From IMG/VR virus record IMGVR_UViG_3300017780_006957, positions 32,001-96,000 of that record: DNA of 64,000 nucleotides; one strand, 5' to 3'. Origin of the DNA: a virus. Numbering within the stretch: the stretch's first letter is position 1; the number at the start of each line of letters is the position of its first letter. A program made the translations under genes and the position numbers. Shown here in pieces: positions 6,539-56,051 of the stretch. The notes beneath the pieces are model-generated. The model saw only the letters and a list, made by a program, of their open reading frames with translations, had not been told where the DNA came from and did not search any database.

Positions 6539-6757
6539 TTAATGAATATAAATTGCTTCACAATCAAACGGATCGTCATCACGGTCAGTCACTTCATGAT
6601 TACCATAATACCATTCAGTATACGCATTAAGTTTAATCTTAACTTCACCAGCTTGATGAGCTTCATCAACTCCTCCTTCATAACCACCAACAATAACCAT
6701 CGTTTCTGGATCGTAAGTGCTTAGTTTTTCAATTAATTGTTTTACGTTCATGCCCAC
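6539..6757 (-). CDS. hypothetical protein
   Basis: ORF (VKQLIEKL...GYEGG). Confidence 0.7.
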   Translation of the reverse strand: MGMNVKQLIEKLSTYDPETMVIVGGYEGGVDEAHQAGEVKIKLNAYTEWYYGNHEVTDRDDDPFDCEAIYIH

Positions 6758-7347
6758 AAATGTTGATGATATTTAACGATAGCGTTCATGGCCCACAAGT
6801 CTTTTTCTTCGATTAGTTTTTCGAGACGATTTGTTTCGGCGTATGCTTCTTCAAAACTCATACCATATAGCTCTTCGCATGAACGCATGCATGATGATTT
6901 GTTCCCTGCGGCATCAACCTTTGGTTCTCTAAACATTCCATGAACCCCAGGAAGCTCTTCTGGATAAGAATTGTCATGTTCTTTTTCAAGCATTGGCCGC
7001 TCAGTCTTAATATAGTTATAAACCGAACGAAGAAGAGTGTCTCTTGCTTTTAAAGTATTAATATATTCTTGAGACACGTGTCCCGCTTTAAGATCCTCGC
7101 TCCAGTCCATTTGATCCTGAAGCCCCTCTTCCTTTTCTATATAATGAATGAGGCACTCAAAAAGCAAATGTGGTATGAGTGATGTCTTATCACACCATGT
7201 ATTTGGAATGCTTTTAGTAAGCCACTTTTGTCGTGGATTAAACCATGCTGAAATTTGATATTTCAAATCCCACCAAAAGTAACTATTAAATAGCAGAGAT
7301 GGGTGCTTAAGCACTCTCAACGGATTGGTTTTATATGTGTTAATCAT
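6748..7347 (-). CDS. hypothetical protein
   Basis: ORF; ATG at 7347 overlaps the upstream stop. Confidence 0.75.
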   Translation of the reverse strand: MINTYKTNPLRVLKHPSLLFNSYFWWDLKYQISAWFNPRQKWLTKSIPNTWCDKTSLIPHLLFECLIHYIEKEEGLQDQMDWSEDLKAGHVSQEYINTLKARDTLLRSVYNYIKTERPMLEKEHDNSYPEELPGVHGMFREPKVDAAGNKSSCMRSCEELYGMSFEEAYAETNRLEKLIEEKDLWAMNAIVKYHQHLWA

Positions 7348-15259: not shown

Positions 15260-15502
15260 ATGCCAAGACATTTACAATCTCAGATCCATTCAGATTTTTC
15301 TCGTATTTCGGGAACTTGGACTGGCTATAGAGCGCAAATCACTGGCTTGTGGGGTTCTACCTCTAACCATGATGATTTTAATAATCATTTAATTAGAGAA
15401 TATAATCGAAAAATTAATTACCTTAATATGCCAAGTGGATTATATATTATTCCTTATAATGCAGGTTTCAGTTATACTACTGATATTAGTAAGCTTACTT
15501 AA
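15260..15502 (+). CDS. hypothetical protein (probably late)
   Basis: GTGTAA 15 nt upstream of ATG. Confidence 0.65.
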   Translation: MPRHLQSQIHSDFSRISGTWTGYRAQITGLWGSTSNHDDFNNHLIREYNRKINYLNMPSGLYIIPYNAGFSYTTDISKLT

Positions 15503-15506
15503 AAAA

Positions 15507-15525
15507 TGGAGCGGAATGTCAGAGT
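15507..15525 (-). pseudogene. tRNA 3'-end remnant (Gly-like acceptor strand, ...CTGACATTCCGCTCCA)
   Basis: 3' T-stem strand, acceptor strand and CCA with no matching 5' half; overlaps the endonuclease stop codon. Confidence 0.5.
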
Positions 15526-16175
15526 GAAATATAATATTTAATAAAAGTTATACATTTTTCAAGAAAAATTGGAAAATCATTTTTTTTCTTATAATTTAAA
15601 TCATTAGATGAAATTCTCATTATATTCCAACCATTTTTTATTAAATTTGAATCTCTAATAGCATCTTTTTCTTTGTCGTGCCATTTTATACCATCATATT
15701 CTATATTTATTTTATAATCTGGTAAAGCTATATCGAGATAAATATTATCGACTTTGTACTCTTGTTGTAATTCTGGAAATATCTTTTTTAATTCTTCAAA
15801 TAATATATTTTGCCAATAAGATTTTTTACCAGCACATTTCTTATTTGGATGTTTTTCTGGATTTAATTTAAAAAATTCTTTTTTTGATAAAGACATTTTT
15901 AATTTACTTTCATCGCTTCTTTTTGAACCAAGATTTTTTAAAGATAAAGCTTTTTTTCTTTCAAGAGTCCAACTTTCTTTAAGTTTTTGTTTTCTATCCT
16001 CAGTACAAGGTAAAGTTTTTTTGCCTTTTATTGGAGATATTCTACCAGTTGCTTTTTGACTTCTTATTGAATTAATTTCTTCAGTCCAAATTCTTGAATT
16101 AGCGCAAGATCTAGAACAAAAAATACCACTGCCAAATGTTCCATTATGATCTATATTGCATTTTTTACATTGCAT
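15519..16175 (-). CDS. homing endonuclease-like protein (NUMOD3 plus Vsr/DUF559-like nuclease)
   Basis: FCSRSC zinc motif, RSDESKLKMS repeat, LDIA....INIEYDG..WH, RD..L..GW. Confidence 0.8.
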   Translation of the reverse strand: MQCKKCNIDHNGTFGSGIFCSRSCANSRIWTEEINSIRSQKATGRISPIKGKKTLPCTEDRKQKLKESWTLERKKALSLKNLGSKRSDESKLKMSLSKKEFFKLNPEKHPNKKCAGKKSYWQNILFEELKKIFPELQQEYKVDNIYLDIALPDYKINIEYDGIKWHDKEKDAIRDSNLIKNGWNIMRISSNDLNYKKKNDFPIFLEKCITFIKYYISL

Positions 16176-16218
16176 ATAATTATTTACACAATCGAACTAA
16201 CTTTATGAATTAAAAAAA

Positions 16219-16292
16219 TGGTGCGTTATGTGGTAGTCGAAACCACGCTACTAGAGTGGAAGTCTAGTGTGCTACCGTAACACTTATAACGC
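16219..16292 (-). tRNA. tRNA-Gly(UCC)
   Basis: cloverleaf GCGTTAT/ATAACGC, anticodon arm CTAGA-CTTCCAC-TCTAG, encoded CCA. Confidence 0.9.
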
Positions 16293-16297
16293 AAAAT

Positions 16298-16369
16298 TGG
16301 TGGAGCATTTCGGAACTGCCCCGAAGTCCGCAATGCATATAGCATTACGTCGAAATCTATATATGCCCC
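16298..16369 (-). ncRNA. minimal tmRNA-like RNA (tRNA-like domain only, no tag ORF)
   Basis: GGGGCAU/AUGCUCC acceptor with G3.U70, ACCA end, stemless 14-nt D-loop ending UUCGAC, 7-bp P2 hairpin, GGAC linker, T-arm. Confidence 0.8.
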
Positions 16370-16852
16370 TTAACTTTCTTTATTAAACATTACATAATTA
16401 TGAACAGAAACAACATAATCTTCTGCTACAGCAAGTTTACCCTGCATCCATGTTTCTGTCAAGTTATCTTGCACTTTTAAATCATCTAAAGCTGCCAAAA
16501 TGTTTTCGGCGTGAGATTTGATTGAAGCAATAGATCCAATAGCCATTTCATAAAGATCTTTCTTGTATTCGGTCAACTCCTCTTCTGGACTTTCATCTTC
16601 CATTTCTGGAGCATTAAAATCCACTTCTTCAGCCTTGCTAACTTTTTTAAGTGGTTCTGCAAAATCAAGAAATTCATCATCGCCAGATCCGACGACAACA
16701 TCAGCAGAAGCTTTGGCTTGATCGAATTGAGTATAACAGATTGCAATGCGCTGTTGATTGTCTTTGAACTTAGGGTCTTTGGCTACTTCAGAGATGCAGC
16801 GGCCCACAAAATCCTTTTTCTTTTCTTTTTTCTCAGGAGTTGGTAAAGGCAT
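16370..16852 (-). CDS. hypothetical protein (MPLP.P...F..RC...QR.AIC type)
   Basis: start reassigned to MPLPTP; GTGTAA upstream. Confidence 0.75.
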   Translation of the reverse strand: MPLPTPEKKEKKKDFVGRCISEVAKDPKFKDNQQRIAICYTQFDQAKASADVVVGSGDDEFLDFAEPLKKVSKAEEVDFNAPEMEDESPEEELTEYKKDLYEMAIGSIASIKSHAENILAALDDLKVQDNLTETWMQGKLAVAEDYVVSVHNYVMFNKES

Positions 16853-16880
16853 AATTTTATATTTAAAATATATTACACTT

Positions 16881-17126
16881 TTAATGCATGAAGTTAATAA
16901 TTTTCTGAACAGCGACTTCAATGTCCGTTGCGTCTCTTATGATTTTATCTTCAGACCAACTATGGGCCGCATTATATGAGTGATTTTTCATCAATTTATT
17001 TGTTTTTAAATCTACCCAATGGAAAGACTGCCAATCGACAAGATCTTTTAGGTTTTTTATGGTGATTCTCTGTTCTTCATATTTGTTGATTTCGATTTCA
17101 ATAGTAGATGTTCCTTTGATTTTCAT
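16881..17126 (-). CDS. hypothetical protein
   Basis: ORF track. Confidence 0.65.
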   Translation of the reverse strand: MKIKGTSTIEIEINKYEEQRITIKNLKDLVDWQSFHWVDLKTNKLMKNHSYNAAHSWSEDKIIRDATDIEVAVQKIINFMH

Positions 17127-17359: not shown

Positions 17360-17980
17360 TTATTTATTGTTTAGATAGAATTTTTTTAGCACTACTTTAT
17401 TTAAGCCTCTACGACTTTCGATTTCAGGAATGATTGTTTTACGAATCCAATTTCTTTCATACCTTTGATCTTCGTTGCTCTCATCAATTTGAAGATACTT
17501 GAAAAGATTGTTTTTGTCAACCCAATTTTCAAAATTCTTTTTAATGTTCAAGATGAATGGGCGATAGATAGAAAAAGAATTAAAATCAGTAAATTCTTGA
17601 ATTGGTTTGTGTTCTGGGCAACCTTTTAAAGTATTACTTATATAACTCTCTACAGCGTCTTGTAAATGCTGGCATTGAATAATTGACCCACCCACTTGAG
17701 AAAAGAATTTTAATCTTTCTTTCCTTAGTCCATCTTCAATATTTTTATCAATCTTAATAGAACATTTTTCTGTGATAAGATTAATTTTATAGTCAGAACA
17801 AAATCTTTCGCAAGCCTTTTGCATAAGGTTGTTTTGCGGTCTTTGATTATGATTATAGTGAATAGCTTGAAATTTTTGTCCAGATTTATGAAGAAAATGA
17901 GCGCAAGCTAGACTATCTATACCGCCAGAGATAGCAATACTATAAGTTTTTGGTAGGTATTTTTTATTTATTTTGATCAT
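17360..17980 (-). CDS. tilS: tRNA(Ile)-lysidine synthetase-like protein, PP-loop domain only
   Basis: AISGGIDS PP-loop, HYNH..R, R..FF, QHLQD..E, RP, DESN.....RN.IR. Confidence 0.85.
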   Translation of the reverse strand: MIKINKKYLPKTYSIAISGGIDSLACAHFLHKSGQKFQAIHYNHNQRPQNNLMQKACERFCSDYKINLITEKCSIKIDKNIEDGLRKERLKFFSQVGGSIIQCQHLQDAVESYISNTLKGCPEHKPIQEFTDFNSFSIYRPFILNIKKNFENWVDKNNLFKYLQIDESNEDQRYERNWIRKTIIPEIESRRGLNKVVLKKFYLNNK

Positions 17981-18028
17981 TTAATTAAAAGATTATGATA
18001 TTTATCATAATCAGTGTATAATAGTTAT

Positions 18029-18388
18029 ATGCAAAAATGTAATCATTGTCAAGCGAATTTATCTGGTAATCAAACTAAATGGTGTTCGGATAAATGCAAA
18101 CATTCTGTCGCAAATGCGAAACATCAAAATTATCAAGCTCAACAGGAAAGAGGCAAGTCTAGAAAAAGAGATTTAATTAAAATGAAAGGCGGCGGATGTG
18201 AAATTTGTGGTTATAAAAAATCTACAGCCGCTCTATGTTTCCATCATTTAGACCCTTCAATAAAAAAATTTGAATTAGATATAAGAAGCTTATCAAATAG
18301 AAGACTAGATTATATCTTGGATGAAGCCTCAAAATGTCAATTACTTTGCTCTAATTGTCATATGGAAGTTCATCATGGTTTAGTATAA
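18029..18388 (+). CDS. HNH endonuclease
   Basis: CEICGY...LCFHHLDP...KCQLLCSNCHMEVH; GTGTAT 15 nt upstream. Confidence 0.85.
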   Translation: MQKCNHCQANLSGNQTKWCSDKCKHSVANAKHQNYQAQQERGKSRKRDLIKMKGGGCEICGYKKSTAALCFHHLDPSIKKFELDIRSLSNRRLDYILDEASKCQLLCSNCHMEVHHGLV

Positions 18389-18396
18389 AATTAAAG

Positions 18397-18486
18397 TACA
18401 AAAGGTGAGACTCGAACTCACAAAGGACTTTCACGTCCATAACGGTTTATGAAACCGCGCCCTTAACCAATTCGGGTCACTTTTGC
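18397..18486 (-). tRNA. tRNA with CAU anticodon (Ile2/Met) and long variable arm
   Basis: GCAAAAG/CTTTTGT, GCGGT-TTCATAA-ACCGT, V-arm GGAC-GTGAAA-GTCC, T-arm GTGAG-TTCGAGT-CTCAC; no CCA. Confidence 0.85.
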
Positions 18487-20043: not shown

Positions 20044-20130
20044 TGGAGCTAAAGGTGAGATTCGAACTCACGGTGCGCTTTCGCATCTCGATTACAAATC
20101 GAGTCCTTTCGACCACTGAGGGACTTTAGC
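20044..20130 (-). tRNA. tRNA-Thr(UGU) with long variable arm
   Basis: GCTAAAG/CTTTAGC, CTCGA-TTTGTAA-TCGAG, V-arm TGCG-AAAG-CGCA, encoded CCA. Confidence 0.85.
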
Positions 20131-20269: not shown

Positions 20270-20438
20270 TTTTCTATCGCTGAAGAAGTCCCCCGTTTCC
20301 ACAGAGGTCAATGACCCTTCTTCACTTTTCTACAAGTACTAACTCGCTGGAGAGTTTGACCACGCGATGCGTAGCTACACTCATTTTCCTGTCCGTTTTC
20401 TCTGAATACTTCGGGCGATCAAAACGCACGATAGAAAA
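20270..20438 (-). ncRNA. structured ncRNA A (169 nt)
   Basis: 10-bp terminal stem UUUUCUAUCG/CGAUAGAAAA, several internal hairpins, GC-rich, no ORF. Confidence 0.65.
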
Positions 20439-20442
20439 TTGA

Positions 20443-20504
20443 CCAATTCCTGACCTGCCGCGCACTACTTTATCAGGTATAGCCGCTTGCAGTCAGGCAA
20501 TTGG
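20443..20504 (-). ncRNA. structured ncRNA B (62-nt bulged hairpin)
   Basis: CCAAUU-G-CCUGAC-UGC / GCA-G-GUCAGG-AAUUGG. Confidence 0.55.
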
Positions 20505-20507
20505 AAA

Positions 20508-20677
20508 TGGTTTTGCGGCTCAGGTCGCTATATCGTGCAATGTGTTCCCAACCGAATAATCGTCTCGAAAGACTCGATTTCTATCAACTGCATTAACCCA
20601 TCACTGAATCGTGCGTTTTATGTTGACTACCTTGCACAAACGTCTTAGTTGACGAATACCCCTCAATGACCGCAAAA
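20508..20677 (-). ncRNA. structured ncRNA C (170 nt, ends CCA)
   Basis: terminal stem UUUUGCGG/CCGCAAAA plus CCA; internal GUGCAA/UUGCAC and GUCU-UUCG-AGAC. Confidence 0.65.
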
Positions 20678-20681
20678 TTAG

Positions 20682-20838
20682 TTTATCTGTCAGACCTTAA
20701 CGCCTATGCCCCTCGCGCATAGACAGCATCTTCGCTGGTTCACGGATGGGCCACTTTGTAGTGCCGTAAGTGCAGCACCTCAGACGGATCTCCAGCATAG
20801 GTCTTCACAGCTGTGTGTAGATATTCTCGACAGATAAA
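20682..20838 (-). ncRNA. structured ncRNA D (157 nt)
   Basis: 10-bp terminal stem UUUAUCUGUC/GACAGAUAAA; internal GCUGG/CCAGC and CUAUGC/GCAUAG. Confidence 0.65.
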
Positions 20839-20841
20839 AAA

Positions 20842-20955
20842 TGCAGAAGAGATTGGATTCGAACCAATATTGTACCATACTGCCCTTGGGCATCCAAGGA
20901 ATCGAACCTTAACGAAATAACCGTCGCTATTGCATTGCCGTTATGCTACTCTTCT
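20842..20955 (-). ncRNA. tRNA-like RNA E with expanded anticodon region containing a second T-arm
   Basis: AGAAGAG/CUCUUCU acceptor, D-arm GCAU-AACGGCA-AUGC, T-arm AUUGG-UUCGAAU-CCAAU, extra AAGG-UUCGAUU-CCUU. Confidence 0.75.
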
Positions 20956-20963
20956 AAAAAAGG

Positions 20964-21036
20964 TGGCTAGAGTGTTTGTGGAATCTCAGGAATTGCATCC
21001 TGTTATACTAGTAACTTGCCAGATTCCCTCTAGCCA
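20964..21036 (-). ncRNA. structured ncRNA F (73 nt)
   Basis: UGGCUAGAG/CUCUAGCCA, GGAAUCU/AGAUUCC, apical CAGGA/UCCUG hairpin. Confidence 0.65.
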
Positions 21037-21048
21037 TTGAAAATTTGT

Positions 21049-21142
21049 CCATAGAGTATGCACTCTCAATGCGTTATGCAGGACTGGCACTAGCTATATG
21101 AATCCTTATAGCTGGAGAAGGAAGCCCGTAACCTTCATATGG
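21049..21142 (-). ncRNA. structured ncRNA G (multi-hairpin)
   Basis: CCAUA/UAUGG closing GAAGG/CCUUC, AGCUAUA/UAUAGCU and AGAGU/ACUCU hairpins. Confidence 0.55.
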
Positions 21143-21154
21143 CTTTTTATATTT

Positions 21155-21233
21155 ACAATGTATGGTTATTAACCCACACGGAATTTCAAGCATTAACCCA
21201 CTACGTATATGGTAACTCACCGATTTCCATTGC
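21155..21233 (-). ncRNA. putative ncRNA H with two GUGGGUUAAU repeats
   Basis: GCAAUG/CAUUGU closing stem, AU-rich flanks. Confidence 0.45.
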
Positions 21234-21242
21234 AAAAATTAA

Positions 21243-21357
21243 TATTCCTTTAATGGTAGGCGTTGTCGCATTCAAATCTCTACCCACCACAATCGCTTCA
21301 AGATTCTCGTTCGCTTACCGCACGGGGCATGAAGCCCCTTGTCCCATTAAGGGAATA
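21243..21357 (-). ncRNA. structured ncRNA I (115 nt)
   Basis: UAUUCCCUUAAUGG/CCAUUAAAGGAAUA terminal stem; GGGGC-UUCAU-GCCCC hairpin. Confidence 0.6.
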
Positions 21358-21376
21358 AAATTTTTAAAATTTTTAT

Positions 21377-21389
21377 TTATTAAAGAACA
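21377..21389 (-). promoter_or_regulatory. boxA-like antitermination element
   Basis: TGTTCTTTAATAA vs rrn boxA TGCTCTTTAACAA; preceded by leader hairpins. Confidence 0.6.
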
Positions 21390-21463
21390 GTATTTTATCT
21401 CTAATCGTTGACTAGAGAGGATCTTTCGAATCTGAGTGACTCCTATTCAATCGATCTATTTAG

Positions 21464-21492
21464 ATAATAACTTATGTTTTCGCTTATGTCAA
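21464..21492 (-). promoter_or_regulatory. sigma70-type promoter of the stable-RNA operon
   Basis: TTGACA-17-TATTAT. Confidence 0.8.
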
Positions 21493-21856: not shown

Positions 21857-22420
21857 TTATATAAAACTTTTCCACTCTTTTCTAATTTTGGACACCTGAA
21901 GAAAAAGATTAGGAATTACTGGAGCTTTTACTATTTCATTTTTAATATTAAAAAATGGAGAATGATCGGACTTCTTTTGATTGCAGTCAAGACAAGCCAA
22001 AGTCCTATTTTCGTGTTCATCAGTTCCGCCCTTACTTTTTGGTTTGATGTGATCAATAGTAAGATCTGCGATTTTAAATTTCTTTAAACAATACTGGCAA
22101 ATAGAATCATGAATTCTGCTTAATTCCGCCAAAGATAGTTTTTTCTTTTTGGGTTTTTTAAAAAATTTACTGGTTACAATAATAATTGTTGGAATTGGCC
22201 AAGAGCGTTTTGCGCTACGAAGAACGGGCTGATCTTCATGGAACTCCGCATAATCATTCCACTTCTCTATAGAATCAAACAAATTATTGTTTTTATCTAA
22301 AGCGGTGACATTTTGACTTAATAGATGCGCGAAAGCAGCCTTTGCTGTGATGGCAGTGATAGGTTGCCAAGCGTTATTAAGTAAGAGTGTGGTTCTAGTA
22401 TTGCAATCTACGATGTTCAT
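21857..22420 (-). CDS. HNH endonuclease (McrA-like)
   Basis: CQYC...LTIDHIKPKSKGG...N...AC..CN..K. Confidence 0.85.
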   Translation of the reverse strand: MNIVDCNTRTTLLLNNAWQPITAITAKAAFAHLLSQNVTALDKNNNLFDSIEKWNDYAEFHEDQPVLRSAKRSWPIPTIIIVTSKFFKKPKKKKLSLAELSRIHDSICQYCLKKFKIADLTIDHIKPKSKGGTDEHENRTLACLDCNQKKSDHSPFFNIKNEIVKAPVIPNLFLQVSKIRKEWKSFI

Positions 22421-24490: not shown

Positions 24491-25258
24491 TTAAACGCAC
24501 GAAGCAATTAATGAGGCTTCATCATCTCTTCTTACCAAAAGACCATCAAGACCCTTGCCAATCCACAGCCTTTTCATCTTGCGGACTTCGTTGGCGATGG
24601 CTTCGTAATTTTTTGAATCAATTAAATTTCTGATATTAAGCATTTCAATCCTACTCGGACCAGAAACCGATGCGCCTCTATTAAAAACAAGACTGACTAA
24701 CGCTCCAAAAGCATCTGGGTGGAGTTTGTCGGAATTAGGAAAAGCTTTTTTTGTTTCGTTTATAAAGCGCGGCAATGTATTCTTTTTAAAAACAATTTCT
24801 GCGGCATCCCAAGATACTTCAATGTCTTTTACGCTTGAAATAGCGGCTTTCGCATTGGAAGATTTTTTTCCAAGGTGTTGAAGCAATCGAATATAAGATT
24901 GGGTATCCAAAATTCCCTTCCAATCTTCTGAGAATTGATATGATGTGTTATAGCCTAAATCGTAGCCTATGCCGATTGTTACGCCGCTTTCGCCTCCAGG
25001 ATAACAAGGATGTTTTAAGCATTTATTATAATAACTTGCGCCGCCGCCAACTTCATATTTAAGAATAAGCGCAAATGATTTTGCAGATAAAGGGTTGGAT
25101 TCATTATTTGAATTAACGACAGGAATTTCGGCAGGTTGCTCGCCAGTTATTTTAATAAGTATTTGTTTCCATGTGTTTGGGCCATCGATTCCATCAGCAT
25201 TTAAATTCAAAGCCTTTTGGACTTTGGTTATTAATTCTTTTTTATTTGCAAATTCCAT
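24491..25258 (-). CDS. endolysin (peptidoglycan-binding domain plus lysozyme-like domain)
   Basis: VQKAL...ADGIDGPNTW; EVGG...PGGESGVTIGIGYDLG; LVSLVFNRG; GL..RR..EA. Confidence 0.9.
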   Translation of the reverse strand: MEFANKKELITKVQKALNLNADGIDGPNTWKQILIKITGEQPAEIPVVNSNNESNPLSAKSFALILKYEVGGGASYYNKCLKHPCYPGGESGVTIGIGYDLGYNTSYQFSEDWKGILDTQSYIRLLQHLGKKSSNAKAAISSVKDIEVSWDAAEIVFKKNTLPRFINETKKAFPNSDKLHPDAFGALVSLVFNRGASVSGPSRIEMLNIRNLIDSKNYEAIANEVRKMKRLWIGKGLDGLLVRRDDEASLIASCV

Positions 25259-25265
25259 ATTTTTA

Positions 25266-25625
25266 TTAGTTAAAATCTTCTGATTGAACCTCATCCTCGT
25301 ATACAGGCAACAACGCTTGCATTTCTTCTGTAGTCAATTCTTGAACATCTGGGAATAATCCCTGATTAAAAACATCAACTAATTTTAACGACCAAAGGGC
25401 TGTGTAAGCTTTTCTTCCATCAGTAAGATCTGTAAGAGAAGCTGTTTCTGGGAATCTTAAAGCTCTAAGAGTTGTATGTTCACTATCATCCCAACCACAA
25501 GCAATAGTTTTGACTGTTAATAGTCCATCAGTTGCATCTTCTCCAAATTGTTCATTGAGAAGTGGAAGTTGTTCTACTAGTGCTTCTGGAAAAGCAAATG
25601 TTTTAAATTCTGTTGAGAAGTTCAT
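25266..25625 (-). CDS. hypothetical protein (possible tail-fibre chaperone)
   Basis: follows the fibre-like paralog cluster. Confidence 0.6.
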   Translation of the reverse strand: MNFSTEFKTFAFPEALVEQLPLLNEQFGEDATDGLLTVKTIACGWDDSEHTTLRALRFPETASLTDLTDGRKAYTALWSLKLVDVFNQGLFPDVQELTTEEMQALLPVYEDEVQSEDFN

Positions 25626-25654
25626 ATGTTATTTTAGTTTATTAATTGTATATT

Positions 25655-26509
25655 TCAATATGGCATATTCAGCCCTGAGCCTATAGTTTGTCTGAATAGT
25701 TGTTTAAATAAGTTTGAGATATTTAATCCTAAAGCCCTTTGGAATACTACAGCGAATGCTCCTGTATCGGCTCTAGTTGCTGATGTTCCATATGTATTGA
25801 ATAAGAAACTATTTGTGCCTGTTGCAAGATATGGTAATACACCTATACCTTCTTGAGTATTACCCGTGGAGTTATTTTGCTGAACAAAATAGTTTCCATT
25901 AACAGGGTCATATATATTATTAGTTTGACCAAAATAATAATTATAACCTGACGGTGTTGGACCTGGTGTTATTCTTGCATATTTTTGAGCAAAAGATGGG
26001 GTAAGAGCGCTACTTCTCATAAGTGTTTGTCCATTGGGTTGAAATATTGACAAAGCTAACTTGGCTGTAGCATCATTCGTCGTACCACTATTATCTAATG
26101 TAACTAATAAAGTAAATGGAAGTATATTTGTTGATCTAAAAACTCCACATAGAGAAGCTTGAGTCCATCCAGTTGTTCTCACAGGAATATCTATTCTTTT
26201 ATAGTTTACTACTTGATCAAAGAATATACCAGACCCATCGCTATTCCATACAGGGCTATTTGTCATAGTACCATTATAAGTGCCTAATCCACCTAGACTA
26301 TAAACAGTAGATCCAGTACCAGCATTATGAATACTTCTCATTGGCCAACAAACCATAGAATTCCATAATCCTAGTTTCTTTGTTCCTATTACAAATTTAT
26401 TAATTTGTTTTAAGTTTTCGGGCAATATAGTTTTACCACTACCCACTTTAACTCTAGTAGCAAAAGCAATAGTGTCTTTATCTAATCCAAATGTTCTTGT
26501 TCTTGGCAT
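25655..26509 (-). CDS. putative virion adhesin paralog 5
   Basis: shared F..G.K.LGLW..MVCWPMR...NAG.GSTVYSLGGLG block and T.G.GL.MP C-terminus. Confidence 0.65.
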   Translation of the reverse strand: MPRTRTFGLDKDTIAFATRVKVGSGKTILPENLKQINKFVIGTKKLGLWNSMVCWPMRSIHNAGTGSTVYSLGGLGTYNGTMTNSPVWNSDGSGIFFDQVVNYKRIDIPVRTTGWTQASLCGVFRSTNILPFTLLVTLDNSGTTNDATAKLALSIFQPNGQTLMRSSALTPSFAQKYARITPGPTPSGYNYYFGQTNNIYDPVNGNYFVQQNNSTGNTQEGIGVLPYLATGTNSFLFNTYGTSATRADTGAFAVVFQRALGLNISNLFKQLFRQTIGSGLNMPY

Positions 26510-26510
26510 A

Positions 26511-27326
26511 TTATGGTAATCCTAATGTTTTTCCGATTGTTGCTTTACATAGATTATAAAAACTTAATTGAGTGCTATCGTCAAGTGCTTTATCAAAGTC
26601 AGCCGCTAAAGACATTGTTCCATTAAGTCCTCTATCGTTCAAACCACCTCCTTGCATTGCCATGCATCTAATGTTATTTGTGTCTGCAATCGGAAAGGCT
26701 ACTCTCGTTGTCGTATTCTTGGAGGCTCCATTTCTGAAGGAATATGCTTGATTAAAATTTAATGCACTGGAAAGACAAACTCTTTGATTATTGTTGACGG
26801 TTTGGCTTAAAGTTGTTCTATTTAAAGAAACTCCCCACTGGAAAAGATTTGAAAAGAAAAATCCTTCCCCTGATGGGGATGCAAACCCAAGATTATAATT
26901 AGATGTTAATAGATAAACTTCCTCTAATGTGAGCGCATTTCGAATAAAAATGGATATTATATTTCTTGTAAAATAATTTGTTTTTTTGGTGTTTAAGAGT
27001 TGAATATAAGGTGGGGGATTTCCTAGACCAGTAGATCTAATACCATCAATTTCCCATACTATGTTGCCAACAGCTATGCCCATTTTTGTTGAATCAAGAA
27101 GACTGCATACGCTTTGTCCTGCGCCCACATTATATCTATTACTCATCAACCATATTTCTCCACTACCCCATATCCCCAAATCTTTTAATCCAATAATAAA
27201 ATTATCAATATCAACAGCATCAGCATTAGTTATCTTATCTAGACCATTTAATTGTCTATAAGTATTAACTCTATTGAGATAACGTTTAGTATCTATGTCG
27301 AAAGTGTATTTTCGTGTAGTAGGCAT
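26511..27326 (-). CDS. putative virion adhesin paralog 4
   Basis: DIDNFIIGLKDLG...TIGKTLGLP. Confidence 0.65.
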   Translation of the reverse strand: MPTTRKYTFDIDTKRYLNRVNTYRQLNGLDKITNADAVDIDNFIIGLKDLGIWGSGEIWLMSNRYNVGAGQSVCSLLDSTKMGIAVGNIVWEIDGIRSTGLGNPPPYIQLLNTKKTNYFTRNIISIFIRNALTLEEVYLLTSNYNLGFASPSGEGFFFSNLFQWGVSLNRTTLSQTVNNNQRVCLSSALNFNQAYSFRNGASKNTTTRVAFPIADTNNIRCMAMQGGGLNDRGLNGTMSLAADFDKALDDSTQLSFYNLCKATIGKTLGLP

Positions 27327-27327
27327 A

Positions 27328-28179
27328 TTAAGGTAATCCTAAGTTTTTGCCGATTGTTGTTTTTATTAAAGCGTATACATTTAAATATTCGGCAGGTGAT
27401 ATATATCTATTTGCTATCATCATTAAAGCCATCGCACCTTGAAAGTAATCTCCCGAACCTGTTTGACCATTTCTAGCTCCGATACCCATAGTATTAAATG
27501 TAGCATTACTAAAGAAACTCAATGCTTTAGTACCAGCGTTTGTAGTTGTGTTAATAGAAGCAGCTAGCCCTGTGGTTAAGCTTTCACCAAAGGATACATA
27601 ATTAACATGCATTGCTGCTGTGTTGTAAGGTGAATAAAATCTAGATCCTGCACTTGTACCATCAGAAGGTGATGAACCAAAGGTTACAAAAAGACCACCG
27701 ACGTTAATGCCAACATACGAATGAGATTGTACATTTATACGAAATCCTCTTGTAGTAGCAGTGACTCCATCATTAGCTAGTAATGCTCTAGCTGCTGTAG
27801 TGTAATCTGGTTGATGTAAACATATCATACTAAACCCAGCAACAACAGGACTATTTAAAAAATTAGGTATTCTTATATACTGTGAATTAGCGGCAGTAAA
27901 ATTAATACCAGATGATCCCCACGAAGGACCGTTTATCATAACACCATCAAACTTTCCTATGCCTCCAAATGATAATATGTTAGCTCCAGAACCCAAGTTA
28001 TGCTGGCTTCTAAAAGGATAAACAATAATGTTTTGTAGTAAATTTAATTGTTTTAATCCCGCTATGAAATTATCTATGTCTGCGATATCAGACAAATTTA
28101 ATTCTCTACCATAAGAATATAATCTTCTTAGATATTGTCTTGTCTCAGTTTGGAGACCATATGATTTAGAATTTACCAT
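27328..28179 (-). CDS. putative virion adhesin paralog 3 (LamG-like core)
   Basis: DIDNFIAGLKQL...IGAR...YFQG...TIGKNLGLP. Confidence 0.65.
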   Translation of the reverse strand: MVNSKSYGLQTETRQYLRRLYSYGRELNLSDIADIDNFIAGLKQLNLLQNIIVYPFRSQHNLGSGANILSFGGIGKFDGVMINGPSWGSSGINFTAANSQYIRIPNFLNSPVVAGFSMICLHQPDYTTAARALLANDGVTATTRGFRINVQSHSYVGINVGGLFVTFGSSPSDGTSAGSRFYSPYNTAAMHVNYVSFGESLTTGLAASINTTTNAGTKALSFFSNATFNTMGIGARNGQTGSGDYFQGAMALMMIANRYISPAEYLNVYALIKTTIGKNLGLP

Positions 28180-29009
28180 TATAAAATTTCTTCTATTATT
28201 CCTGTTGTAACAGTAGGCTTATTCTTAGCTATTAGAGTATTTGTGCCGTATAAATCTCTACCATCTGATGTGCCTGATCTTTCATTCAATGGCCAATATG
28301 AAACTAGACCATTTACTAGTGATGGTGTGTAATATATAGCTTCTAAAAATGATCTACCACTACCTGAATTATATAACGATGTTCTCTCTGCCGCTGTTAA
28401 TACTCTTGACCATTGCCAAATTCTTGCTGCTTGACCATTTAATGACACATCAACAGGATTCCAAGCGGCAGCTATTCTTAAATCTCCAACATTAGAAGTG
28501 AACCCTCCAGCTAAAACAGCAGATACTATAGCTCCATCATCAACTTGAATATAATAAGAAGATCCATCATACCAACCATTGACTAATTGCCAATTATTTG
28601 ATGGTGCTATATTACTAGATATATTTGTTGTGCCATATTTAGCAAAATAGATATATGTTCCAAAATATAATGCTGGCCCTCCTTGACCCTTGCCTATTAT
28701 AGTTCCATTATTTGACCCTTTAAACCAAGCAACAAAAGTAAAAGGTGAAGTTGTAAAGTTAATGGTAGAATTGGTTGGACAACTCATATGTTGAGATGCA
28801 GCTCCTCCTGTGCTTCCTGAACCACCAGCAAAACTTCTAGTTGTTGTACTAGTAGAATTTGGTAATGATAAATTATTTGTTTTCCTGAGAATAAAATAAT
28901 CATTAACTGCTTTTACTCCAGCAGTATTAAGAGAAAATCCACTATTACCTTCCATTCTCTTAAGGAAGGCTTTTGTTTCTTTTTCTAAATTGTAATATCT
29001 TTTTGCCAT
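28179..29009 (-). CDS. LamG/concanavalin A-like virion protein (paralog 2)
   Basis: FTFVAWFK, W.LV...YDG, WSRVLTAAER..LYN, GLVSYWPLNE. Confidence 0.75.
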   Translation of the reverse strand: MAKRYYNLEKETKAFLKRMEGNSGFSLNTAGVKAVNDYFILRKTNNLSLPNSTSTTTRSFAGGSGSTGGAASQHMSCPTNSTINFTTSPFTFVAWFKGSNNGTIIGKGQGGPALYFGTYIYFAKYGTTNISSNIAPSNNWQLVNGWYDGSSYYIQVDDGAIVSAVLAGGFTSNVGDLRIAAAWNPVDVSLNGQAARIWQWSRVLTAAERTSLYNSGSGRSFLEAIYYTPSLVNGLVSYWPLNERSGTSDGRDLYGTNTLIAKNKPTVTTGIIEEIL

Positions 29010-29010
29010 A

Positions 29011-29904
29011 TTATGGTAATCCTAAGCCGTTTCCGAGGGTGTTTTTATAGAGATCTGTAAACTGAATGCCTTGATCGTAAATATCTATGTTAGCGTGTAA
29101 TAAAAATGGAAGATTCCATGTTTGATTGTTAGTGCTGGTATACGTATATCTAAAATCAACTGTTGTTACTCCTCCATTCCAATCGAAGCTTGCATTGGAC
29201 GCAGATTTAGGCGTTTTGTTATAATATCCTCTTGCTGAGGATATTGAATTAACCGACATGATTACACTCTTGAATGTCGAGCTTGTGAAAGAGCCGAAGT
29301 TTAATTGCTGCGTTCTCCATGCCAAATATTCTCTATTGCCTCCTGGTAGGTAAAAAAGTTTACCATTAAACATGCTATGCCCTACTACACTATTTGATGT
29401 ATATCCAGAAGTATTAGAGTTATCAACTGTCACCATAGCACATGGAACATTTGACAATTTTAAAGACGGTACATTCAAATAACTATTATTAACTGACCAA
29501 AAAATTCCTAAACTACTCCAACTAACAGCATTAACAAGCGTTCCGTTATGAACACCTAACCCACCTAAACTATACACTGTTGATCCAGCTCCAGCATTCT
29601 GATAATTTCTCATTGGCCAACAAACCATATTCTGCCAAAGACCCAATGTCTTCATTCCTCTAGTAAACCAAAGCACTTCACATCTCCCCAAAGGATCTGT
29701 GACTCCTGCTCTACTGAGATATGCATCACCATCTACATCATTAAAGCCTAAGCTAAGCCTAGACCAATCACCAGACTTCTTTAGACTTTCTACTCTATCA
29801 TTAATGGCTTTTATTGCAGAAGAAGACACAACGATACCTTGTTCGCTCTGTAAGCGATTTATATAGGATTTTACTTCGTTTTGTATTCCGTAGAATTTCA
29901 TCAA
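29011..29904 (-). CDS. putative virion adhesin paralog 1
   Basis: LGLWQNMVCWPMR...NAGAGSTVYSLGGLG; TLGNGLGLP end. Confidence 0.65.
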   Translation of the reverse strand: MMKFYGIQNEVKSYINRLQSEQGIVVSSSAIKAINDRVESLKKSGDWSRLSLGFNDVDGDAYLSRAGVTDPLGRCEVLWFTRGMKTLGLWQNMVCWPMRNYQNAGAGSTVYSLGGLGVHNGTLVNAVSWSSLGIFWSVNNSYLNVPSLKLSNVPCAMVTVDNSNTSGYTSNSVVGHSMFNGKLFYLPGGNREYLAWRTQQLNFGSFTSSTFKSVIMSVNSISSARGYYNKTPKSASNASFDWNGGVTTVDFRYTYTSTNNQTWNLPFLLHANIDIYDQGIQFTDLYKNTLGNGLGLP

Positions 29905-30728
29905 ACTCCCTCCCAGAAAATATAACGACCAGTTGATCCAGATATGGTATTTACGGAGACATCTCCTTTGTATCTGTCATCAAAGAATTTTTCTCCTCTA
30001 GCGTCGAATTCAGCTGTTCCAGGATATAACATAAAATTAAATGAACTAGTATTACAGCCTAAACCATATTTCACATACAACGGAACTGTCCCGAAATTTT
30101 GCCCAACTAAAGTAATTCTATTGGAATTACCAGATACCACTTGAGTGCCGACTCCAGATGAAGAAGTTCCACTAATTAACCCAGTAATATAATTTGACAC
30201 AGATCCATATCCAATATCAAAATTAGTAACACTATCAATATCTTTATCCAAATCGGCCTGATATGCTAATGCTCCGCCATTATCTTTGTCGAAGTTGAAT
30301 GATACAGCATCATTGCGGCCATAATTTGGATAGAATCCACTGCCCATATCTACTGCTCTTCCTCCAACATTTTGAATTTCAATAGGAACTACTGCGGAAT
30401 ATAAACCAGTAGATGTTCCTGATCCAGTAAGATAACCAGTAAGATAACCAGATGCTAAGTCTACTCTTTCGTTTGGAGCGTCATAGAAAATCTGAAGGCG
30501 ATTTGTATCTGCCATCACTCCGCTCGTAGTATAATTTAATTTTAAAGAATTATTTCCTACGCCTGTAATGTATCCACCAGCAGTTGGATCTGCAAAATTA
30601 TAAATAATTTTATTTTGAGTAACATTGGTAACTAAAAGAAAATTCTCTAAAACTAATCCAGAATATTGGGTAAGCTGAACTATTCCTGAGTTTGAATTAA
30701 AATTATAACCTGTAATTAATTTTTTCAT
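29901..30728 (-). CDS. putative tail/baseplate structural protein
   Basis: LL.TNVT.N.IIYNFADP...LQIFYD N-terminal module typical of fibre-associated proteins. Confidence 0.65.
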   Translation of the reverse strand: MKKLITGYNFNSNSGIVQLTQYSGLVLENFLLVTNVTQNKIIYNFADPTAGGYITGVGNNSLKLNYTTSGVMADTNRLQIFYDAPNERVDLASGYLTGYLTGSGTSTGLYSAVVPIEIQNVGGRAVDMGSGFYPNYGRNDAVSFNFDKDNGGALAYQADLDKDIDSVTNFDIGYGSVSNYITGLISGTSSSGVGTQVVSGNSNRITLVGQNFGTVPLYVKYGLGCNTSSFNFMLYPGTAEFDARGEKFFDDRYKGDVSVNTISGSTGRYIFWEGV

Positions 30729-48818: not shown

Positions 48819-51245
48819 TTAACCGATATTAATTGAGTTGTCAATGATTTTTACTGAGATTTGTGATTTTTTTGAATTTTGAATAATAAACTTCGAAATT
48901 GGCACTTGCAGTTTGTTGCGAACAAAATCTTTAATGCTTCTGGCGTGAAGTTTTTCTTTTTTTAATGAATTTAAAATGAATTCCGAGATGGCTTTATTAA
49001 AAGTCATTTTAATATTTTGTTGTTTGAGTTTATTTTGAATAGTTGAAATTTCAAAATTAATGATTGATTCGAATTCTTTATCTCCAAGTTCATTAAAAAC
49101 TAAAATATTATTAAGTCTTGCGACAAATTCTGGTTTCAAATATTTTTTTACTGAATCTTTGTATATTTCTTGAGCTGGGGGCGAGTCATTAATAAAACCC
49201 ATCGATACAGCTTCTTTTTTATCATGCCCAATATTACTAGTCAGGATGACGATTGATTTGGCGAATGATATTTTATTATTTAAATTATCATTGACATATC
49301 CTTCATCTAATAAATGAAGCAATAGATTGAGAATCTCAGGATCACATTTCTCTACCTCATCGAAGAGAACCACGCAATTGGGGTTGTTCCTTACAAATTC
49401 GGTTAAAAGCCCTCCTTGGTCAAATCCTACATAGCCAGCATTAGCGCCAATCAATTTACTGATGCCAGTTTTCTCTTGGTACTCGCTCATATTGATTTGG
49501 ATAAATGCTTTTTCATTACCATAAAAATGTTTGGCGATTTTTTTGGCTGTATAGGTTTTGCCTACACTGGTTGGGCCAACAAAAAATAAACTAGCTAATG
49601 GTTTGTCGTTATCATTAAGCCCGACTTTGGCGCAAGACAAAATATCAGTAATCTCTTCAATGTTTTTGGATTGACCAAAAACCTCTTTTTCTATATTGTT
49701 TTGAAAATTAGAAAATTCATTATTATTAACCGCAATTGAGCCTTCTGATAAACCAGTTTTTTCCGAAATAACTTTAATAACATCTGATAATTTAATTTTA
49801 AACCTTTTATTCTTAATTGTCTCATTAAATTCTCCAACACACAAAACATACTGCATTAAAAGATCTTCACAATATGCCTGTTCATCTATATCTTGATCTA
49901 CTTTAACATCATTTAATTTTTCGATTAGATATTTTTGCAAGTTTTTAATATCTTCTGGAAGTTGAAGGTTTTTAATTTTAACTTTAGCGCCAACTAAATC
50001 CATAATATCAAAGGCTTTATCTGGGAAGTTTTTATGAGGAATATATTTCTCACAAAGATTGACGATTGTATCGATAATTTGTGGAGTATAGCTTACATGG
50101 TGGAAGTCTTCATAATCGCTCACGCAATTTTTAATAATTTCCATAGTCTGTTCTTTGGGCGGTGCTTCGATTTTTACGGGATCAAATCTCCTTTTCATTG
50201 CCCCGTCTTTTTCAAAATATTTTTTATATTCTGCGTTGGTGGTCGCGCCAATACATTTAAAATTGCCTCTAGCTAATGCTGGTTTTAAAATATTTGCTGC
50301 ATCCAAAGAACCCTCTGAACTGCCAGTTCCTACAATATTGTGAATTTCATCAAAAAATAAAATAATATTTTCTTTTTCAGAAGCAGCCTCAATTAATTGT
50401 TTTAATTTTTCTTCGAAATCTCCCCTATAGCGAGTGCCAGCGACCATAGATGCCAAATCTACGCTATAAATACGAAGATCGAGTAAATTCGATGGGACAT
50501 CTTGAGAGATAATTCTTTGGGCTAACCCTTCAACAATCGCAGTCTTGCCAACCCCGCCTTCACCAATTAAAATTGCGTTACTTTTTATTTTTTTAGAAAG
50601 GATTTCGATGACTTCATTAATTTCTTTATCGCGTCCAGAGATAAAATTAAATTTACCGTCGATAGCCTCTTGATTTAAGAATGAACAATATAATTCTAAA
50701 GATTTATTTTTTTTCTTTTCACTAAATTTTGTTTGAGTAGTTTTTTCTTCTGTTGATTTTTCTGAAGTTTCGACTGGAGTATTTGAGAACGACTCTATGT
50801 GTTCTTTGACAACTTGTTTTAAACTATCAATATCAATTTTTTTAAATTTTAAAAATTCACATAAATTTTTTGAGTTTTCTAAAATAGAATAAAAAATATG
50901 TTCAATTCCAATATAATCATGCTCGTAAACTTCAGATAGTTTTTGAGCGTACGAGATCGTTTCTGCCGTTTCTTCGTGCCATGATTCAACAGAAAAATCG
51001 CTAATAAAATCTTTTGGATATTTTTTGAAATAACTCGACATTAAATGTTCACAATTAATTAGGGAAACATCAATATCATTAATTTCCAACATCATTGTTA
51101 AATCTTCAGATAGATTTTTAAAACAACCATAATATAGGTGGGTGTTATTGATTATATTGTGAGCATTTTCAACGGCAAATTCTTTTGCGTGTTTATAGGC
51201 TTTTTTTGCTCTTGGTGTCAAATTAAAATTATTGATTGCCATCAT
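48819..51245 (-). CDS. ClpA/B/C-family AAA+ chaperone
   Basis: Clp N-domain, [39 protein letters not shown]. Confidence 0.95.
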
Positions 51246-55280: not shown

Positions 55281-56051
55281 ATGAAAAGATTTTCACAAGA
55301 AGAAAAAATATGGATTAAAGACAACTACAAGCACAAATCAATTAATGAAATGTGTTCTTTCTTAGAAAGAACCGAAGCTTCTGTAAAAGGATTTCTAAAT
55401 AAAAATAAATTAAAAAATAGCTTTGATTATTCTAGACCTAATAATATTGGATTAGAAAATGAAAAATTATGTTATCTTTTGGGATTTATTTGGGCAGATG
55501 GCTATATTAGTGAAAAAGGATATATAGAATTAACTATTTTAAATTCAGATGGACAACAAATATTACCCGTAATCCAATATATTGAAGGATTTAAAATTAG
55601 ATTAAATAATAGAAAAAATAAAAAAACTACTATATCTTTTATATCTAGAAATAAAGATTTTGTTTCTATGTTATTGAATTTAAAATTTAATAACAAAAGT
55701 TATTGCGAACCAACTGAACTTTTACAGATTATGCCAAAAAATAATCATTATCTTTTTTGGAGAGGTTTATTCGATGGTGATGGTTGTATTTATGATCAAA
55801 AGACTTCAGCTACAAAAGTATCAAAAAGAATAGAAATTTCAGGTCAATATGATTATCAATGGACAGAGCTTTCTAAATTATTAGAAAATCTTAATTGTTC
55901 TTTTTGTATAAAAAAGTCAGATACTCTTTATGGAAAAAATTCTTTGATTAAGATTTGGAGAAAGGCTGATGTCATAAAATTTAGTGAATATATTTACGCC
56001 GACGGAGGAATTAATGGGTGCTTAACTAGAAAAAAAATTAAGTTTTATTGA
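55281..56051 (+). CDS. LAGLIDADG-type homing endonuclease
   Basis: YLLGFIWADG and FWRGLFDGDG motifs; GTGTAA upstream. Confidence 0.85.
   Translation: MKRFSQEEKIWIKDNYKHKSINEMCSFLERTEASVKGFLNKNKLKNSFDYSRPNNIGLENEKLCYLLGFIWADGYISEKGYIELTILNSDGQQILPVIQYIEGFKIRLNNRKNKKTTISFISRNKDFVSMLLNLKFNNKSYCEPTELLQIMPKNNHYLFWRGLFDGDGCIYDQKTSATKVSKRIEISGQYDYQWTELSKLLENLNCSFCIKKSDTLYGKNSLIKIWRKADVIKFSEYIYADGGINGCLTRKKIKFY

Follow-up and report, generated by a model that had tools for sequence, protein, structure and literature searches.

Does an uncultured freshwater phage encode a tmRNA which has been reduced to its tRNA-like domain (TLD), and if so, what might such an RNA do during infection? This question is raised by a 72-nt element on the minus strand at positions 16298-16369 of the window, by which we mean the whole 64,000-nt stretch of viral DNA which was analysed. 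An earlier, sequence-only reading of this DNA had claimed a complete TLD layout here; its transcription matches the minus-strand letters exactly, and the layout was borne out element for element by the sequence, the fold and comparison to E. coli ssrA. Window coordinates are obtained as 16370 minus the RNA position, and all of the following elements lie on the minus strand. From its 5′ end the RNA consists of the 5′ strand of the acceptor stem, GGGGCAU (RNA 1-7, window 16363-16369), which includes the G3 of G3:U70 and forms 7/7 pairs with 16302-16308; a stemless 14-nt D-loop (RNA 8-21, window 16349-16362) which ends in UUCGAC, as does the D-loop of the same length in E. coli ssrA, and contains the AG that partners the T-loop; a helix 2 stub of 7 bp, GUAAUGC/GCAUUGC (RNA 22-28:34-40), with the loop UAUAU at 29-33 (window 16330-16348); a GGAC linker between helix 2 and the T-arm (RNA 41-44, window 16326-16329); a T-arm with the 5-bp stem UUCGG/CCGAA (RNA 45-49:57-61) and the 7-nt loop GGCAGUU (RNA 50-56, window 16309-16325); and the 3′ acceptor strand AUGCUCC, which contains U70 (RNA 62-68), followed by A73 and an encoded CCA (ACCA, RNA 69-72, window 16298-16308). 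The minimum-energy structure from RNAfold is this same layout (−26.3 kcal/mol, z = −3.3), and 0/200 shuffled sequences folded as well.

The helix 2 stub occupies the site where full tmRNAs run on into pseudoknots and the tag reading frame. Between UUCGAC and GGAC there are 19 nt alone, which make up the 7-bp hairpin with its 5-nt loop, and as this loop is too small there is no room for a coding piece. The RNA has no resume codon, tag reading frame, stop codon or pseudoknots PK1-PK4. All of the alanine identity elements are present (G1:C72, G2:C71, G3:U70, G4:C69 and A73), and the T-loop lacks the usual U54 and U55. The gene order is standard and unpermuted, with both acceptor strands within one 72-nt hairpin-closed unit. 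The element is a real gene, which encodes a complete, unpermuted tmRNA TLD and no mRNA-like domain.

We compared this RNA to the known forms of tmRNA. It shares with E. coli ssrA the 7-nt acceptor strands, the D-loop described above, GGAC, a 5-7-5 T-arm and ACCA, whereas canonical tmRNA (ssrA, RF00023) also has pseudoknots, a resume codon, a tag frame and a stop codon. In the permuted two-piece tmRNAs (RF01849, RF04321) the 3′ half ending in CCA comes first and is followed by the 5′ half, an arrangement which differs from that of the window RNA. The position of GGAC is shared with E. coli ssrA and with the Rfam consensus sequences of alpha_tmRNA and tmRNA_permuted. Tested for membership of each class, the window RNA came out as TLD-only and not as a complete tmRNA, a permuted tmRNA or a tRNA. 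The Rfam alpha_tmRNA consensus has the same D-loop/T-loop type (AUAG with GGCRG), and the AG/GGCRG pair was also found in permuted tmRNAs of marine phages (L124-L126). A scan of bacterial genomes for mini-tmRNAs with a GGCRG T-loop gave 12 matches, of which 10 are permuted tmRNAs of the usual sort from Sphingomonadales (acceptor stem paired at 4-6 of 7 positions, with the real 5′ strand downstream) and 2 are true minis on contigs of Clostridia MAGs. An alphaproteobacterial host had been considered on the grounds of the alpha-type D-loop/T-loop pair; this was dropped because minis of the same type occur on the Clostridia MAG contigs.

The sequence-only reading had also proposed a check with ARAGORN and with cmsearch models of tmRNA. 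Neither ARAGORN nor Rfam calls the element, but a purpose-built covariance model does. In the 64-kb window ARAGORN called six tRNAs and missed the mini-tmRNA, and at gathering thresholds Rfam matched tRNAs only, with no match to a tmRNA family. At E up to 10 a single related match appeared, a partial one to tmRNA_permuted, scoring 15.8 bits where the gathering score is 47 and borrowing the T-loop of the neighbouring tRNA-Gly; the Rfam mitochondrial tmRNA model had no match in the window even at E up to 10. The covariance model, R1, was built from an alignment of 53 other viral sequences (A2) from which the window RNA was left out. It nevertheless scored the window RNA at 57.3 bits (E 7.8e-11) over its full length, a match which lies far beyond chance given that the RNA was not in the training set, and it gave no second full match across the 64-kb window. 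Rfam tmRNA calls were likewise absent for L021 (a related virus discussed below), L122 and L123, and ARAGORN tmRNA calls were found at 3/119 family loci among the matches listed. Annotation pipelines for phages which rely on ARAGORN or Rfam would miss such genes.

We scanned IMG/VR for the pattern GGGG, UUCGAC, 10-40 nt, GGAC, a T-arm and UCCACCA, with three acceptor pairs fixed, and found a family of at least 119 contigs (at least 90 distinct sequences). All 119 contigs listed have 7/7 acceptor pairs and 5/5 T-stem pairs. In the A2 alignment (n = 53), 98.2% of stem cells were paired, compared to 72% after shuffling and at most 63% with the partners slid, and double-sided (compensatory) changes were seen at 12/17 pairs, giving a covariation score of 0.725 against 0.18 in shuffles. 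Family-wide covariation is seen at all five helix 2 pairs of the model, and the T-stem is 100% paired, with covariation at 4/5 pairs. The D-loop dinucleotide which corresponds to G18-G19 also covaries with T-loop positions 55-56, in the combinations GG-UC/CC (36), AG-GC (27) and GA-UU (10), with zero exceptions among sequences in common register. Such covariation (a 19:56-type tertiary pair) is what marks a tRNA-like elbow. In length the helix 2 cap ranges from ~10 to 34 nt, its sequence is variable too, and there is no anticodon-like loop which is conserved family-wide.

As the first pattern forced G3:U70, we ran a second scan in which the acceptor stem and discriminator were left free and only UUCGAC, GGAC, a UUCRANU T-loop and CCA were fixed. 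G3:U70, A73, G1:C72 and G2:C71 were invariant in 81/81 distinct well-formed members, while pairs 5:68 and 6:67 varied freely by compensation among those same members. The 13 further matches were either due to chance (2/5 of the T-stem paired) or were a U70/A73 3′ end without a 5′ acceptor strand (none pairing ≥ 6/7 at the usual distance), and an alternative 3:70 pair was found in none of them. Invariance of the alanine identity elements alongside free compensation at 5:68 and 6:67 points to selection for alanylation, and suggests that the function is selected and charging-dependent and that the RNA is not an oddity.

Most members of the family stand alone, with any tRNA nearby at only 16/119 of the loci listed. 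Members of ~80 nt (L003, L028, L047, L070 and others) keep a conserved interior, a module which is lacking from the window RNA: UAA follows ~6 nt after UUCGAC and lies opposite GAN on the returning strand, around a CC...GG hairpin. This interior resembles what we take to be a UAA/GAN-type internal loop. ARAGORN called tmRNAs of ~330 nt at L009 2976-3318, L051 4100-4442 and L087 5905-6228, each with its 3′ end where the mini form also ends. A mini-like unit may be nested within a full-length tmRNA at these loci, or ARAGORN may have extended its calls too far.

It should be noted that the kind of molecule is already known. The novelty implied by the sequence-only reading was overrated, as a phage precedent has been published and plastid examples are now listed. 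In the list given by Hudson, Lau and Williams (2014), after Mao et al. 2009, there is an entry ‘Mycobacterium phage DS6A (TLD only)’ (PMC4131195). According to that paper and the 2025 tmRNA database paper, the DS6A RNA amounts to little more than a TLD, and tmRNA of E. coli is strongly inhibited by a molecule like it (PMC4131195; PMC11915505). Hudson et al. found the E. coli inhibitor to be active whether or not it could be charged, and SmpB titration was suggested as a possible cause of the inhibition (PMC4131195). The 2025 database contains 9 ‘standard, no CDS’ sequences and names DS6A and two plastid genes of ~65 bp; its paper ascribes to the DS6A form an inhibition of the endogenous tmRNA of E. 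coli (PMC11915505). In the tmRNA Website the DS6A TLD-only tmRNA has tmID 11587. Within the literature on mini, minimal, truncated or tagless tmRNA, we found no paper which describes the breadth of the family in phages.

R1 finds the DS6A RNA at 28478-28560 of JN698994 (L120) with 52.9 bits, and as the model defines it, the window RNA and the published DS6A RNA are one family. Both are phage-encoded, in standard order, and have a complete TLD with G3:U70, A73, a UCGAC-type D-loop, a T-arm and a short hairpin in the interior. The DS6A RNA differs in its length of 83 nt, longer interior, GGCAC linker, canonical UUCGAUU T-loop and lack of an encoded CCA, whereas the 72-nt window RNA has the AG/GGCAGUU D-loop/T-loop pair, an encoded CCA and a place in a tRNA cluster. 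The phages differ too, DS6A being a GC-rich temperate actinophage and the window phage an AT-rich freshwater phage with no cultured relative. In GenBank the DS6A RNA sits in an unannotated gap between gp33 and gp34, and this phage also encodes an RtcB-like RNA ligase (gp76).

The CDS-less tmRNAs of jakobid and oomycete mitochondria and of Mallomonadaceae plastids (~65 bp in the plastids) are also TLDs without a tag frame (PMC11915505). The 2025 database lists 72 ‘permuted, no CDS’ sequences beside 73 mitochondrial ones (PMC11915505), and from our own reading of its tables the mitochondrial CDS-less forms appear to be permuted. These organelle RNAs use the organelle-targeted SmpB of the same organism, whereas the window RNA comes from a virus, is not permuted and would have to rely on SmpB of the host. 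Laboratory TLD constructs are essentially the same molecule (acceptor stem, T-arm, D-loop and a loop-closed helix 2 stub), but they are engineered, while the window RNA is a natural gene under selection. With reference to Shimizu and Ueda 2006, PMC3895274 states that tmRNA truncated to its TLD accepts the peptide in vitro with SmpB and EF-Tu.

We also examined the neighbourhood of the gene. In 5′ to 3′ order on the minus strand, the locus contains a TilS-like PP-loop ATPase gene (17360-17980; PF01171, E 2e-30), a tRNA-Ser, two small ORFs, the mini-tmRNA, a tRNA-Gly and a homing-endonuclease-like ORF. The tRNA-Gly(UCC) (16219-16292, minus strand; called by ARAGORN and Rfam) follows the 3′ end of the mini-tmRNA after a 5-nt spacer. 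On the other side lies a 183-aa ORF from the ORF list (16370-16921, minus strand), whose TAA stop codon abuts nt 1 of the mini-tmRNA and which had no Pfam or PHROG match. We rejected this ORF as a partner protein: it matched no family, it stands beside no other member of the mini-tmRNA family, and it is mostly missing in one strain, with 483 nt (16389-16871) absent from one contig of run X22. A sigma-70-like site (TTGACA, 17 nt, TAAACT) 65 nt upstream of the mini-tmRNA was set aside as promoter evidence, since the scan gave 22 such sites where ~14 were expected and this one lies inside the stretch missing in X22.

The syntenic relative L021, from IMG/VR, has a TilS-like protein which is 99% identical to that of the window phage, an HNH protein which is 90% identical and an orthologue of the 183-aa ORF which is 76% identical; in the C-terminal stretch of this ORF that was read, the changes are for the most part synonymous. 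Its tRNA order is much alike, with a tRNA-Lys in place of the window tRNA-Leu and an extra tRNA-Gln. A full-length tmRNA in relatives would, according to the sequence-only reading, have marked the element as the relic of a recent deletion; L021, the sole relative found, instead has an orthologue of the mini form at the same place, followed by a tRNA-Gly. The two mini-tmRNAs differ at 10/72 positions (14%), which comprise three compensatory pairs and four loop changes. The acceptor pair 5:64 changes from C-G in the window to U-A in L021, and in helix 2 pair 24:38 changes from A-U to G-C and pair 27:35 from G-C to A-U. The four unpaired differences are in the D-loop, the helix 2 loop and the T-loop, and no pairs are broken. 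As the differences are only compensatory or in loops, a recent-deletion relic is disfavoured.

This stretch of DNA recurs in lake-water metagenomes of some twenty studies, and the window phage is a widespread lake phage. Contigs from other lakes keep the mini-tmRNA and tRNA-Gly together while the sequence below tRNA-Gly differs, and strains which lack the flanking ORFs retain the pair. Run X22, for example, skips 15500-16213, which contains the homing-endonuclease ORF (15519-16175), along with the 483 nt of the upstream ORF. X22 is a metatranscriptome, and we rejected the cover of 16213-16388 by its contig as evidence of transcription, because DNA can occur in such libraries; all four of the sequencing runs compared are assembled contigs, which carry no RNA ends, strand or level. 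Among GenBank phages, neither the locus nor the 72-nt RNA was matched at the DNA level (megablast and blastn, E up to 1). The window phage has ~33% G+C, its DnaE-type polymerase has at most 33% identity to that of any cultured phage, and in the nearest record (G001, 27.7 kb) the mini-tmRNA is absent.

Several other features of this region are worthy of note in their own right. Homing-endonuclease-like genes are dense, being found at 15519-16175, 18014-18388, 21857-22420, 55281-56051 and elsewhere (HNH, DUF559/REase-like, LAGLIDADG and GIY-YIG), and L021 has a group I intron match at 6637-6838. Two tRNAs have a long, type-II-style variable arm: a 91-nt tRNA with anticodon CAU at 18396-18486, near the TilS-like gene, and an 87-nt tRNA with anticodon UGU at 20044-20130, both on the minus strand and labelled Met and Thr, respectively, by ARAGORN; another is present in L021 (6316-6406). 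Long-arm tRNAs with anticodons CAU or UGU are unusual. A 112-nt tRNA-like RNA at 20844-20955 (minus strand), within an ORF-poor stretch (20270-21490), was missed by ARAGORN and reached 40.4 bits with the Rfam tRNA model under permissive filters only; it has a large insertion at the anticodon arm, and R1 picks out its T-arm (20852-20868). The window also encodes an 808-aa ClpA/ClpB/ClpC-like AAA+ unfoldase (48819-51245, minus strand) with Clp_N, two AAA modules and ClpB_D2-small, which matches the PHROG ‘ATP-dependent protease’ (E 4e-203). A Clp-like unfoldase of the phage may matter to any phage tampering with ssrA tagging. Finally, seven consecutive ORFs of ~270-300 aa (24491-30728, minus strand) have no Pfam family. 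One pair of these was compared and showed 34% identity over the N-terminal 109 residues (E 1e-18), and on this basis the seven may be a tandem paralogue array.

A separate coding piece or an smpB gene elsewhere in the genome had been suggested as a further check, and neither was found within the 64 kb. No match to PF01668 (SmpB) was listed among the ~65 window ORFs scanned, tblastn of E. coli SmpB against the window gave nothing better than E 2.1, and the SmpB family was absent from two related virus fragments. Within the 64-kb window there was also no tmRNA family match, second (coding) piece or permuted form, and no arfB, pth or release-factor domains were found among the window ORFs scanned.

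By analogy with known TLD molecules, we propose with moderate confidence that the RNA is charged with alanine, binds SmpB and EF-Tu of the host and competes with host tmRNA, so that tagging is suppressed. The gene would be transcribed together with the neighbouring tRNAs, and its ends are presumably made by tRNA-processing enzymes of the host, with RNase P cutting at G1, right after the upstream stop codon, and the CCA being already encoded. As every alanine identity element is present, host AlaRS should charge the RNA. The D-loop, GGAC linker and helix 2 stub make up the surface which is bound by SmpB in tmRNA, and SmpB would be expected to bind here also. Ala-mini-tmRNA with SmpB and EF-Tu would then enter ribosomes which have stalled on broken or non-stop mRNAs, replacing host tmRNA. 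As there is no resume codon, tag frame or stop codon, the nascent chain would be extended by a single alanine at most and would remain without a degradation tag. Host tmRNA would in sum face a competitor both for SmpB and for stalled ribosomes, and ssrA tagging would thereby be suppressed during infection. The earlier functional proposal, which offered SmpB sequestration or tag-free rescue, agrees with the literature.

It should also be noted that a ribosome holding peptidyl-Ala-mini-tmRNA without a stop codon would hurt phage translation too, unless it were released. Full tmRNAs are found in 2.3% of phage genomes (PMC9004378), which suggests that supplying rescue, and not blocking it, often benefits the phage. 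The T-loop without the usual U54 and U55 is a further point against our reading. A productive, tag-free form of rescue is the alternative closest to competition, although we think it rather unlikely. Here the charged mini-tmRNA, with host SmpB, would free ribosomes, add one alanine and have the non-stop mRNA ejected, after which drop-off and Pth, ArfB-type factors or a splitting of the ribosome would set the peptidyl-mini-tmRNA free, so that the phage would gain translation capacity without losing its products to proteolysis. The invariant alanine identity fits a function which needs both charging and ribosome entry. In addition, the mitochondrial CDS-less tmRNAs are conserved with SmpB, their proposed role being to deal with incomplete mRNAs (PMC11915505), the TLD alone accepts the peptide in vitro (PMC3895274), and the many phages with full tmRNAs imply that rescue capacity is useful (PMC9004378). 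However, none of the rescue-factor domains searched for (arfB, pth or release factor) is among the window ORFs scanned. We know of no release mechanism for a peptidyl-TLD which lacks a stop codon, and this counts against productive rescue. The sole experimental datum on such an RNA is also inhibition of tmRNA (PMC4131195; PMC11915505). An RNA which takes no action on the ribosome, as a pure SmpB sponge or as a decoy for other TLD-binding host proteins, is in our judgement improbable. SmpB titration was suggested for the E. coli inhibitor, for which charging is unnecessary (PMC4131195), and the CoCoNuT defence proteins, with SmpB-like OB folds, are predicted to bind tmRNA (PMC11090510). A sponge, however, would not need invariant G3:U70, A73, G1:C72 and G2:C71 or an encoded CCA in a family which is otherwise highly diverged. 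Given that the inhibitor works even if unchargeable, simple titration leaves this invariance unexplained, and it argues for charging-dependent action, hence on the ribosome rather than as a pure sponge. Against a decoy, the locus has no linked gene for defence or counter-defence, and its neighbours are common to L021 only.

The position of the gene within a tRNA cluster, 5 nt from tRNA-Gly, could also indicate an odd decoding tRNA, or an alanine donor for a non-ribosomal process such as cell-wall or lipid aminoacylation. Opening the closing pair of helix 2 would indeed give a 7-nt loop with U at the U33 position. We regard this as very unlikely, as ARAGORN and the Rfam tRNA model (RF00005) are silent here yet call the neighbouring tRNAs, the RNA has no D-stem, a 5-nt loop and a helix 2 cap which is variable across the family, UUCGAC and GGAC are hallmarks of tmRNA, and tRNAs are close to so few of the family loci listed. 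Some phages carry full and permuted tmRNAs, certain of which have the same T-loop type (L124-L126), and the element could in principle be a functionless, decaying relic of a full-length phage tmRNA after a recent internal deletion. This is scarcely credible given that the L021 orthologue is 14% diverged with compensatory or loop changes only, that strains in other lakes keep the mini-tmRNA and tRNA-Gly where the flanking ORFs differ or are missing, and that the family is large and covarying. Competition with host tmRNA by a charged mini-tmRNA remains the reading we prefer.

Bacteria rely on trans-translation as their main pathway of ribosome rescue and quality control, and it is a target for drugs. 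As a ready-made probe, a natural viral RNA with the TLD alone allows one to ask whether A-site entry, peptidyl transfer and translocation can proceed apart from tagging, and what advantage a phage would draw from this. Published examples amount to one phage (DS6A) and nine ‘standard, no CDS’ sequences (PMC4131195, PMC11915505), compared to at least 119 viral contigs here; the kind is known though barely documented, but the size of the family, its tertiary covariation and its invariant alanine identity exceed the single published phage example, and with them the effects of phages on trans-translation become directly testable. It is possible, and we put this forward tentatively, that TLD-only tmRNAs of phages are widespread and selected host-takeover RNAs, charged with alanine, which make trans-translation tag-free by adding one alanine and no degron. 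If so, AlaRS, SmpB and EF-Tu of the host would be co-opted to capture ribosomes stalled on cleaved mRNAs, phage products would be protected and the fate of stalled ribosomes would be altered during infection. In that case the 72-nt freshwater form would lie near the natural minimum for codon-free entry into the A-site.
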